A stretch of DNA of 64,000 nucleotides from the sequence record NC_054934.1, one strand, 5' to 3'. The stretch comes from Escherichia phage teqskov. Below are positions 4,852 through 8,572 of the stretch, in pieces (position 1 is the first letter of the stretch; every line of letters starts with the position of its first letter). The translations under genes and the position numbers were made by a program. Under the pieces are notes generated by a model, which was not told the DNA's origin, did not search any database, and saw only the letters and a list, made by a program, of their open reading frames with translations.

Positions 4852-5475
4852 ATGATTATTAATCTTGCAGATGTTGAACAGTTATCTATAAAAGCTGAAA
4901 GCGTCGATTTTCAATATGATATGTATAAAAAGGTCTGTGAAAAATTTACTGACTTTGAACAGTCAATTCTTTGGCAATGTATGGAAGCCAAAAAGAATGA
5001 AGCTCTTCATAGGCAGTTGAATAAAATCGTTAAAAAGCATTTAACTAAATCACCTTATCAGTTATATCGTGGTATATCAAAATCAACAGAAGAACTTATT
5101 AAAGATTTACAAGTTGGAGAAGTGTTTTCAACGAACAGGGTAGATTCATTTACTACTAGTTTGCTCACAGCATGTTCTTTTTCTTACGCTGAATATTTTA
5201 CTAAAATAATACTTCGCTTAAAAACTAATAAAGCTTTTAATTATTCTGACCATATCAGCGATATTATACTTTCTTCTCCTAATACTGAGTTTAAGTACAC
5301 GTATGAAGATACTGATGGATTAGATTCAGAGCGTACTGATAACTTAATGATGATTGTGCGTGAACAGGAATGGATGATTCCAATTGGAAAGTATAGAATA
5401 ACTTCTATTTCAAAAGAAAAATTACACGATTCATTTGGAACATTTAAAGTTTATGATATTGAGGTAGTTGAATGA
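4852..5475 (+). CDS. modB: ADP-ribosyltransferase ModB
   Basis: 207 aa (T4 ModB length); ART R-S-E triad (YRG, FTTSL, EQEWMIP); position upstream of modA. Confidence 0.7.
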   Translation: MIINLADVEQLSIKAESVDFQYDMYKKVCEKFTDFEQSILWQCMEAKKNEALHRQLNKIVKKHLTKSPYQLYRGISKSTEELIKDLQVGEVFSTNRVDSFTTSLLTACSFSYAEYFTKIILRLKTNKAFNYSDHISDIILSSPNTEFKYTYEDTDGLDSERTDNLMMIVREQEWMIPIGKYRITSISKEKLHDSFGTFKVYDIEVVE

Positions 5476-6074
5476 AATACTCAGTAATGCAACTAAAAGA
5501 TTTTAAAATAAAATCAATGGATGCATCGGTGCGTGCTTCTATTCGTGAAGAATTACTTTCTGAAGGGTTTAATTTATCTGAAATTGAACTTTTAATTCAT
5601 TGTATTACTAATAAACCAGATGACCATACTTGGTTAAATGAAATAATCAAATCTCGTTTGGAACCAAACGATAAACCTCTTTGGAGAGGTGTTCCAGCTG
5701 AGACTAAACAAGTATTAAATCAAGGAATTGATATTATTACATTTGATAAAGTCGTATCAGCTTCATATGATAAAAATATAGCTCTACATTTTGCTTCTGG
5801 TTTAGAGTATAACACACAAGTTATTTTTGAATTCAAAGCTCCTATGGTATTCAATTTCCAGGAGTATGCTATAAAAGCTCTACGCTGTAAAGAATACAAT
5901 CCAAACTTTAAGTTTCCGGATAGCCATCGTTATCGTAATATGGAATTAGTTTCAGATGAACAAGAAGTAATGATACCAGCTGGAAGTGTATTTAGAATTG
6001 CAGATAGATATGAATACAAAAAGTATTCAACATACACTATCTATACTCTTGATTTTGAAGGATTTAATCTATAA
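5472..6074 (+). CDS. modA: ADP-ribosyltransferase ModA
   Basis: 200 aa (T4 ModA length); ART triad (WRG, SAS, EQEVMIP); tandem with modB. Confidence 0.7.
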   Translation: MKYSVMQLKDFKIKSMDASVRASIREELLSEGFNLSEIELLIHCITNKPDDHTWLNEIIKSRLEPNDKPLWRGVPAETKQVLNQGIDIITFDKVVSASYDKNIALHFASGLEYNTQVIFEFKAPMVFNFQEYAIKALRCKEYNPNFKFPDSHRYRNMELVSDEQEVMIPAGSVFRIADRYEYKKYSTYTIYTLDFEGFNL

Positions 6075-6130: not shown

Positions 6131-6160
6131 GTTTACAAGTTAAAGTAAAAATGTTATAGT
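6131..6160 (+). promoter_or_regulatory. early promoter
   Basis: GTTTAC -35, 18-bp spacer, TATAGT -10. Confidence 0.5.
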
Positions 6161-6196: not shown

Positions 6197-6943
6197 ATGA
6201 AGCTGTCTAATAACCAAATTCGTAAAATTAAACGTCGTCTAGAGCATACCCAGGCATCTGCAAAAAGACGTTCTAAAGATTTTAACTTAGACTTCAATTA
6301 CATTAAGAACATTTTAGATCAGAAAGTTTGTGCTTACTCAGGAGAACCTTTTGATAATCGTGTTGAAGGAGAGAAATTATCATTAGAACGTTTTGATAAT
6401 AACGTTGGATACATTAAAGGGAATGTTATTGCAGTAAAGAAAAAGTATAATACATTTCGTTCTGATTATACTTTAGAAGAGTTGATTGAAAAGCGTGATT
6501 TATTTGCTTTGCGAATTGGTCGTTCATCTGCGAAAAAAGTTCATAAACTAAATTTAGATGAAAAGAAATGGGCTAAAATCAAAAAGACTTATAATCAAAT
6601 TAAAGCTATACAGAAAAAACGTGAAAACCGAATTGAACACATTTCTCAGCTTTCTAAATCAAAACAGACCTCTGACATTAAGCTAAGAATTATAGCACTT
6701 AAAGCTCGTATTGATGGTTCTCGCATAGCAGAAGGCGCTGAAGTTGTTAAACTGAACGTTCTTCTTAAAGGCTCGGATTGGAAAATTGTGAAAAAGTTGT
6801 CAGAAGCAGAAATGCAATATGATATGTGTGATAAAATTATTCAAGGTGTAGAGCGGTATCAAAACTTGTCTTTTATTGATAAACTTAAACTGAAAAGAGG
6901 ATACCCGCTAAATTGTTCAATTTTTAAACTTATCCGAGGATAA
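6197..6943 (+). CDS. Srd-position protein (248 aa) with degenerate HNH-like N-terminal motif
   Basis: Size and position (between modA and dda) match T4 srd; N-terminus CAYSGEPF...LSLERFDNNVGYIKGNVIAV resembles an HNH core lacking the catalytic His/Cys. Confidence 0.5.
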   Translation: MKLSNNQIRKIKRRLEHTQASAKRRSKDFNLDFNYIKNILDQKVCAYSGEPFDNRVEGEKLSLERFDNNVGYIKGNVIAVKKKYNTFRSDYTLEELIEKRDLFALRIGRSSAKKVHKLNLDEKKWAKIKKTYNQIKAIQKKRENRIEHISQLSKSKQTSDIKLRIIALKARIDGSRIAEGAEVVKLNVLLKGSDWKIVKKLSEAEMQYDMCDKIIQGVERYQNLSFIDKLKLKRGYPLNCSIFKLIRG

Positions 6944-6944
6944 T

Positions 6945-7256
6945 ATGGTTTATGTATATGCGATAGTTTACCGAGACAAAGACGGATTTACGGCGCCAGT
7001 TCCGCTTGATGAACATCGTCCTGCTGTATTTTTTGAATGGAATATTGCTGATAAAGTATTTACTACTCTTAAAGAGCAGTATCGATTAGCTTTAGGTAAG
7101 GGAATTCCAAGATTAGTTGAGACTCCACGCAAGTTTTGGTTTAATAAAATAGAAGTTAAACATGTTAAGCCTGACGTAGACACACAAAGATTATATCAGC
7201 GAATTTTAGATACTGGGCGTATTGTTAGTATTCCAATTGCAGGGACTTTCCGATGA
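6945..7256 (+). CDS. hypothetical protein (103 aa)
   Basis: ATG with GAGGA RBS; immediately upstream of dda. Confidence 0.5.
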   Translation: MVYVYAIVYRDKDGFTAPVPLDEHRPAVFFEWNIADKVFTTLKEQYRLALGKGIPRLVETPRKFWFNKIEVKHVKPDVDTQRLYQRILDTGRIVSIPIAGTFR

Positions 7257-8572
7257 CATTTGATGATTTGACCGAAGGCCAGAAAAATGCCTTTAACATT
7301 GTTATGAAGGCTATTAAAGAAAAGAAACATCATGTAACTATTAATGGACCTGCTGGTACCGGTAAGACTACTCTTACTAAATTCATCATTGAAGCTTTAA
7401 TATCTACGGGTGAAACTGGTATTATTTTAGCAGCTCCTACGCATGCGGCTAAAAAGATTCTTTCAAAACTATCAGGGAAAGAAGCGAGTACTATTCATAG
7501 TATTCTTAAAATTAACCCAGTAACATATGAAGAAAACGTTCTTTTTGAACAAAAAGAAGTACCAGATTTAGCTAAATGCAGGGTATTAATCTGCGACGAA
7601 GTGTCAATGTATGATAGAAAGCTATTTAAAATTCTGCTTTCAACTATCCCGCCATGGTGTACCATAATTGGAATAGGGGATAATAAGCAAATTAGACCTG
7701 TTGACCCAGGAGAAAACACTGCTTATATCAGTCCATTCTTTACACATAAAGATTTTTATCAGTGTGAACTTACTGAAGTTAAACGCAGTAATGCTCCTAT
7801 TATTGATGTAGCTACTGACGTTCGTAACGGTAAGTGGATTTATGATAAAGTTGTTGACGGGCATGGAGTACGTGGATTTACTGGTGATACCGCTTTACGC
7901 GATTTTATGGTAAATTATTTTTCAATCGTCAAATCTTTAGATGATTTGTTTGAAAATCGCGTAATGGCATTTACGAATAAATCTGTTGACAAGTTAAATA
8001 GCATTATTCGTAAAAAGATTTTTGAAACTGATAAAGATTTTATTGTCGGTGAAATTATTGTAATGCAGGAACCATTAATTAAAACATATAAAATTGATGG
8101 AAAGCCTGTATCAGAAATTATTTTTAATAACGGACAATTAGTTCGTATTATAGAAGCAGAGTATACATCAACGTTTGTTAAAGCCCGTGGTGTTCCTGGG
8201 GAATATCTAATTCGTCATTGGGATTTAACAGTAGAAACTTACGGCGATGATGAATATTATCGTGAAAAGATTAAAATAATTTCATCTGATGAAGAGCTAT
8301 ATAAGTTTAACCTATTTTTAGGTAAAACTGCAGAAACTTATAAAAATTGGAACAAAGGCGGAAAAGCTCCGTGGAGTGATTTTTGGGATGCTAAATCACA
8401 GTTTAGTAAAGTGAAAGCACTTCCTGCATCAACATTCCATAAAGCTCAGGGTATGTCTGTAGACCGTGCTTTCATTTATACGCCTTGTATTCATTATGCA
8501 GATGCTGAATTGGCCCAACAACTTCTTTATGTTGGTGTTACCCGTGGTCGTTATGATGTGTTTTATGTGTGA
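7253..8572 (+). CDS. dda: Dda DNA helicase (SF1B)
   Basis: 439 aa; Walker A GPAGTGKT, DEVSM Walker B; sequence recognised as T4 Dda. Confidence 0.92.
   Translation: MTFDDLTEGQKNAFNIVMKAIKEKKHHVTINGPAGTGKTTLTKFIIEALISTGETGIILAAPTHAAKKILSKLSGKEASTIHSILKINPVTYEENVLFEQKEVPDLAKCRVLICDEVSMYDRKLFKILLSTIPPWCTIIGIGDNKQIRPVDPGENTAYISPFFTHKDFYQCELTEVKRSNAPIIDVATDVRNGKWIYDKVVDGHGVRGFTGDTALRDFMVNYFSIVKSLDDLFENRVMAFTNKSVDKLNSIIRKKIFETDKDFIVGEIIVMQEPLIKTYKIDGKPVSEIIFNNGQLVRIIEAEYTSTFVKARGVPGEYLIRHWDLTVETYGDDEYYREKIKIISSDEELYKFNLFLGKTAETYKNWNKGGKAPWSDFWDAKSQFSKVKALPASTFHKAQGMSVDRAFIYTPCIHYADAELAQQLLYVGVTRGRYDVFYV

Follow-up and report, generated by a model that had tools for sequence, protein, structure and literature searches.

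An open reading frame at positions 6197-6943 (plus strand) of the window, the 64,000-nucleotide stretch of Escherichia phage teqskov DNA analyzed here (NC_054934.1), encodes a protein whose N-terminal region carries an HNH-like motif that lacks both the catalytic histidine and the zinc-binding cysteine pairs. An earlier note on this DNA placed the gene at the position of the phage T4 gene srd, and read the region as a degenerate HNH core, perhaps domesticated or inactivated and fused to a basic helical C-terminal domain. The locus raises the question of which fold this region adopts, whether the missing residues mark a dead enzyme and what such a domain would contribute to the protein that carries it.

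The srd gene and its reported role

According to the list of open reading frames, the gene comprises 248 amino acid codons and a stop codon. Its product is identical to T4 Srd (NP_049634.1) at 247 of 248 residues, with V56I as the sole difference, and matches the PHROGs family phrog_1400, 'Srd anti-sigma factor', over residues 4-248 (4e-108). The gene order modB-modA-srd-dda.1-dda is common to the window, T4 and phage DalCa. In the window, two ADP-ribosyltransferase genes lie 5' of srd (4852-5475 and 5472-6074), and a 103-codon open reading frame, dda.1 (6945-7256), and the Dda helicase gene (7253-8572) lie 3' of it. The near-complete identity to NP_049634.1 and the shared gene order identify the open reading frame as srd itself, beyond a gene that merely occupies its position. 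The DNA is 95-99.7% identical to that of about 500 Tequatrovirus genomes. Of 499 matching phage records, 496 have srd in this same place, nearly all of them with at least 95% nucleotide identity. Srd orthologues are present throughout the T4-like phages. A six-frame search of the whole window finds no second copy of the Srd N-terminal domain.

A single base separates the stop codon of srd (TAA, 6941-6943) from the ATG of dda.1 at 6945, and dda.1 in turn overlaps the start of dda (7253-7256). This tight packing suggests translational coupling. A promoter-like site 5' of srd (6132-6160, plus strand) consists of TTTACA, a 17-nt spacer and TATAGT, the -10 element being preceded by TG; it is a consensus match alone (10 of 12 positions in a consensus scan), in a region where the number of such sites is not above that of shuffled sequence. 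The record of phage DalCa annotates a promoter at the equivalent place. A minus-strand terminator-like hairpin within dda.1 (7061-7081) is the single such site in the scanned region, and it is probably a chance occurrence, since shuffled sequence yields 0.5 on average.

The early T4 protein Srd reportedly associates with the N-terminal, catalytic half of RNase E and stimulates the decay of host mRNA, a finding of Qi et al. (2015) that is cited in PMC13232886, PMC7430671, PMC4980113 and PMC9409239. The same RNase E function is assumed for the protein analyzed here because it is one residue apart from T4 Srd. In the work of Qi and colleagues, the effect of Srd on mRNA decay is said to be absent in RNase E-defective cells, and deletion of srd reportedly lowers phage yield. 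Apart from Srd, very few proteins are known both to bind the catalytic half of RNase E and to activate it. RapZ and CsrD likewise speed cleavage via this half (PMC7430671, PMC13232886), but they are host-encoded and have unrelated folds, and the action of RapZ is confined to a single sRNA, in contrast to the broad effect of Srd on host mRNAs. No report of nuclease or nucleic-acid-binding activity of Srd was found in the literature searched. Product names for srd are inconsistent across the approximately 500 phage records and include 'Srd anti-sigma factor', 'anti-termination' and 'hypothetical protein'. None of the database names 'Srd anti-sigma factor', 'anti-termination' and 'decoy of sigma70' is backed by the profile searches.

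Fold and active-site residues of the N-terminal domain

Residues 1-105 (6197-6511, plus strand) make up a PacI-type domain with the beta-beta-alpha-metal (His-Me finger) fold. The full-length Srd model generated by AF2 from 18 orthologues has a pLDDT of 89.6, and a separate AF2 model of residues 1-104 has a pLDDT of 86.5. In these predictions, the domain consists of helices at residues 5-24 and 33-40, strand beta1 (61-65), an omega-loop (66-76), strand beta2 (77-81), a helix at 82-88 and a further helix from residue 93 onward. A Foldseek search with the full-length model returns PacI with a probability of 0.99. A profile built from 33 diverse relatives of the domain and searched against PDB sequences gives PacI as the sole significant match (E 3.6e-4), and HHalign aligns the Srd domain family with PacI at 94.3% probability in the same register as the profile alignment. 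By structure and by sequence alike, PacI is therefore the nearest relative of Srd, and residues 1 to approximately 105 are an HNH-superfamily (His-Me finger) domain of the PacI type. The HNH-fold similarity that the earlier note had proposed on the basis of the motif was thus recovered by both structure prediction and HMM comparison, so the fold idea stands.

When Srd is searched as a single sequence, no significant match is obtained in Pfam, NCBIfam or the PDB sequences, and no HNH family of Pfam is returned even at E-values up to 10. In PHROGs, the N-terminal part matches families labeled endonuclease (8e-19) and HNH endonuclease (1e-16), and phrog_1035, 'endonuclease VII', matches residues 9-127 (1.4e-7); these labels are annotations and not tested functions. 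When BFVD is searched with the Srd model, Srd orthologues rank at the top, ahead of matches confined to the N-terminal domain, which include proteins of Pandoravirus, Medusavirus, Pithovirus and Klosneuvirus, some of them named HNH endonuclease.

The HNH-like motif string described in the earlier note is present at residues 45-85 (6329-6451), and its account of what is missing from the motif is accurate. The canonical catalytic histidine is absent, its position being taken by R65, and H17 is the sole histidine in residues 1-110. C45 is likewise the sole cysteine in residues 1-110, so the zinc-binding pairs have been lost. The alignment with PacI assigns each of these positions. The segment C45-A-Y-S48 (6329-6340, plus strand) is what remains of the first zinc-knuckle CxxC: in both the profile and the HHalign alignment, C45 is kept as the equivalent of the PacI zinc ligand C63, and S48 corresponds to the zinc ligand C66. 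In the segment K81-K-K-Y84-N85 (6437-6451, plus strand), K81 and Y84 replace C109 and C112, the second pair of zinc-binding cysteines of PacI.

The catalytic positions present a different picture. E64 and R65 (6386-6391, plus strand) end strand beta1 and correspond to D92 and R93 of PacI, where D92 is a metal ligand (PMC4081073) and R93 stands in the place of the canonical histidine, as Arg does throughout this clade; Srd has Glu instead of Asp at the position of D92. Y72 in the omega-loop (6410-6412, plus strand) corresponds to PacI Y100, the general base or nucleophile of that enzyme, with the number 100 deduced from this being the sole tyrosine of the PacI loop sequence in the alignment. 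N76 at the start of beta2 (6422-6424, plus strand) is the equivalent of N104, the middle Asn of the HNH motif, and N85 in the following helix is the equivalent of the metal-binding N113 (PMC4081073). The spacing is identical in the two proteins, with 7 residues from R to Y, 4 from Y to N and 9 from N to N.

These correspondences bear directly on how the missing histidine is to be read. PacI itself has no catalytic histidine, and a tyrosine of the omega-loop replaces it (PMC5714182, PMC3384342); one Asp and one Asn coordinate its single metal ion (PMC4081073). PacI falls into group 20 in the classification of Jablonska et al. (2017), a mainly viral group with Pandoravirus and chlorella-virus proteins, which as a rule has a tyrosine in the omega-loop in place of the histidine (PMC5714182). 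Since PacI-type enzymes are active without it (PMC5714182, PMC4081073), the missing histidine is no sign of a dead domain, and the description 'inactivated HNH' is not supported for the Srd sequence. The missing histidine that the earlier note took for degeneration is the natural state of the PacI clade, and Srd keeps E64, R65, Y72, N76 and N85. Its term 'degenerate' holds for the Cys4 zinc knuckle, but not for the catalytic set, whose equivalents are retained at PacI spacing.

Srd resembles PacI in a detectable sequence relationship, in the acidic residue and Arg that end beta1, the GY of the omega-loop, the Asn at beta2 and the Asn in the helix, and in the mostly viral spread of the clade, which includes Pandoravirus and other giant viruses (PMC5714182). 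It differs in that each PacI subunit has two structural Cys4 zinc sites, of which Srd has none and only C45 is left; in the use of Glu rather than Asp as the putative metal ligand; and in a 140-residue helical C-terminal module that is absent from PacI. The known roles also differ, PacI being a homodimeric restriction enzyme that cleaves dsDNA sequence-specifically and Srd an activator of a host RNase. Canonical HNH nucleases of the Pfam PF01844 type, such as Cas9 HNH, McrA, the colicins and phage HNH proteins such as GVE2, are further removed: Srd has neither their His general base nor their zinc-binding Cys/His pairs, and the Pfam search to E-values of 10 finds no link to them. T4 endonuclease VII (gp49) is another His-Me finger protein encoded by this phage, and carries a DH..H motif and a CxxC...CxxC zinc site; Srd has no match to the Pfam family Endonuclease_7.

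Conservation, the wider family and the C-terminal module

C45, E64, R65, Y72, N76 and N85 are invariant in the 18 Srd orthologues down to 31% identity, and are present in 74 of 74 Srd-like proteins, defined as those that also have the C-terminal module of Srd. Residue 64 is always Glu in the Srd-like proteins. Across the 216 domains found in all fetched sequences of the wider family, the corresponding counts are 216 for C45, 215 for Glu or Asp at position 64, 214 for R65, 215 for Y72, 216 for N76 and 212 for N85. These values, like those for the Srd-like proteins, are biased upward because the retrieving profile contains these same columns. The orthologue set is less affected, since it was fetched with the full-length protein. 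The former zinc positions behave differently, with Ser or Thr at position 48 in 202 of the 216 domains and Cys at position 48 in 4, at position 81 in 30 and at position 84 in 4. C45 is invariant throughout even though its three zinc partners are lost. Folding alone could account for the retention of N76 and perhaps of Y72.

A word-indexed homologue search yields 27 Srd orthologues, and the wider family is reached by an exhaustive search with a profile of the N-terminal domain, which returns 10,878 cluster representatives (50% identity) at E <=1e-3 and 754 at E <=1e-10. The family occurs in phages, giant viruses and some eukaryotes. No Pfam family for the N-terminal domain is found among 10 full-length relatives and 33 domain sequences, and cluster look-ups of the relatives return almost no names. 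The neighborhoods of two relatives other than Srd, in Acinetobacter phage TaPaz and Pseudomonas phage phiPsa397, contain hypothetical proteins throughout. Two members with tandem domains, P0155 and P0170, keep the full C..CG...DR.D..GY..N..CC..CN pattern with all four cysteines. By combining the Cys4 site with the DR..GY..N..N motif, they form a bridge between the zinc-less form and PacI.

Domain architectures were assigned for the best 150 family representatives. The combination of the N-terminal domain and a helical module that is seen in Srd is the most frequent (52 representatives), followed by tandem arrays of two to four domains (41), an N-terminal extension ahead of the domain (23), the domain followed by another C-terminal region (20) and the domain alone (14). 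For an enzyme that requires two active sites, as the dimeric PacI does, a tandem arrangement would be suitable.

The C-terminal half of Srd has a pI of 10.0 and is predicted by AF2 to be helical, in agreement with the basic helical region that had been proposed as the fusion partner of the HNH-like core. The module proper (residues 122-222; 6560-6862, plus strand) comprises three long helices at 122-153, 159-191 and 193-222, with pLDDT values mostly between 87 and 95 and a dip to 73 in the block 191-200. For this module, Foldseek against the PDB gives coiled-coil noise alone (E >0.1), the sequence of the C-terminal half has no match in the PDB, and neither the module nor the tail that follows has a recognizable Pfam relative. 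This tail (residues 223-248; 6863-6940, plus strand), with the sequence LSFIDKLKLKRGYPLN..IFKLIRG, is among the best conserved stretches of the C-terminal half in the 18 orthologues down to 31% identity. In the same set, R220 and G235 are invariant and L232 and P237 are at least 90% conserved. The tail is a candidate partner-binding element.

Proposed function and alternative readings

The explanation that we consider quite likely is that T4 Srd is an RNase E activator composed of a zinc-less PacI-type domain that engages nucleic acid and of a basic helical bundle with its tail. Residues 1 to approximately 105 retain E64, R65, Y72, N76 and N85 as a complete PacI-type set, with the Cys4 brace lost except for C45. 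Such a domain may still bind a metal and nucleic-acid phosphate, and would therefore be the part of Srd that engages nucleic acid, whether by handing RNA to RNase E or by cleaving nucleic acid on its own. Residues from approximately 111 to 248, the basic bundle of three long helices and the conserved tail, could serve for docking to RNase E or for self-association. The strict conservation of Y72, E64 and N85 argues against a mere scaffold. Points against this explanation include the silence of the searched literature on any binding of nucleic acid by Srd, the disappearance of the structural zinc knuckle of PacI and the Glu that stands where PacI has its metal-binding Asp.

Whether the domain still acts as an enzyme is where the readings of Srd diverge. 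That the domain is a domesticated, catalytically dead HNH fold, retained only as a scaffold or as a surface that binds, for instance, RNase E or nucleic acid that is left uncut, is only slightly short of an even prospect. Such a fate would fit the loss of the Cys4 zinc site, with its single remaining cysteine in residues 1-110, and the fact that the sole reported Srd activity runs via RNase E (PMC13232886, PMC7430671, PMC4980113). Inactive His-Me fingers reused for binding are also known: the Smad MH1 domain and the nuclease-like domain of Enpp belong, like Srd, to proteins with a known role other than cleavage (PMC5714182). The argument from the missing histidine fails, however, given the active His-less enzymes of the PacI type (PMC5714182, PMC4081073). 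Known dead His-Me fingers have lost catalytic residues, Smad MH1 and Enpp having neither the His nor a substitute Tyr (PMC5714182), whereas in Srd the Tyr and the two putative metal ligands are all present, and its equivalents of the PacI catalytic residues are invariant in all 74 Srd-like proteins and in orthologues at 31% identity. This complete and strictly conserved set is in turn a point in favor of Srd being an active Tyr-dependent DNA or RNA nuclease that aids host shut-off, for instance through nicks in host DNA or through cuts at which RNase E could enter, which is possible but can be put forward only tentatively. Tandem copies in 41 of the best 150 representatives could be consistent with a two-site enzyme like dimeric PacI, and relatives are labeled endonuclease in PHROGs and in phage records, although these labels are annotation only. 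Against such an activity stand the lost zinc knuckle and the silence of the searched literature on any nuclease activity of Srd. Its effects on mRNA are moreover said to depend on RNase E, which argues against a self-sufficient RNase. It is rather doubtful that T4 Srd is an active zinc-independent, Tyr-dependent nuclease whose site is needed for host mRNA to be broken down with RNase E, for instance to make a first cut or to hold RNA at RNase E through a metal-phosphate contact.

Two further readings concern the name of the gene and its origin. The database annotation of Srd as an anti-sigma factor or a decoy of sigma70/sigmaS, a name derived from 'similarity with rpoD', is very improbable. 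It appears in the product names of T4 and many Tequatrovirus records, and phrog_4592, 'decoy of host sigma70', does match residues 10-89 (3e-13), but this label stems from the same historical annotation. No Sigma70_r1-r4 family of Pfam is returned at E-values up to 10 and no NCBIfam family matches, the supposed sigma-like region folds as a His-Me finger, and later experiments assign Srd an RNase E function (PMC13232886, PMC4980113). In view of the missing sigma similarity, the identity of a sigma decoy is rejected. A free-standing homing endonuclease gene that lies by chance between modA and dda.1 is barely credible. A fold of this kind is typical for phage homing endonucleases, and relatives have a scattered distribution in phages and giant viruses, but srd holds the same position in 496 of 499 records, has orthologues throughout the T4-like phages and has no paralogue in the window. 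The domain is also fused to a conserved C-terminal module, an arrangement common to 52 of the best 150 representatives, and loss of srd reportedly reduces phage growth. The fixed gene position and the conserved fusion led to the rejection of this identity as well.

The preferred reading of Srd as an RNase E activator with a PacI-type domain has several practical consequences. If half of the protein is a PacI-type fold with a conserved active site, then Y72F, N85A, E64A and R65A are concrete point mutants and a clear domain boundary is available at approximately residue 110. The widespread label "anti-sigma factor" lacks support from profile searches. The srd gene, the RNase E role of its product, the superfamily and the clade were already known. 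No paper linking Srd to the HNH or PacI fold was found in the literature searched, and the place of Srd in the PacI clade appears to be new, as do the intact state of its active-site set and the extent of the zinc-less, uncurated family. The analysis flags this very large, mostly viral family of zinc-less PacI-like domains, which is without a Pfam model and whose annotators would be misled by the rule that an HNH domain without a histidine is dead. Should Srd prove to be active, it would be the first characterized enzyme of a family that comprises 10,878 or more clusters (50% identity).

Four family members, P0041 (CAE8651769.1), P0087, P0096 and P0099, are eukaryote-like and have two to four tandem domains, each preceded by a Cys-rich ribbon. 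The source of P0041, Polarella glacialis, is a dinoflagellate.
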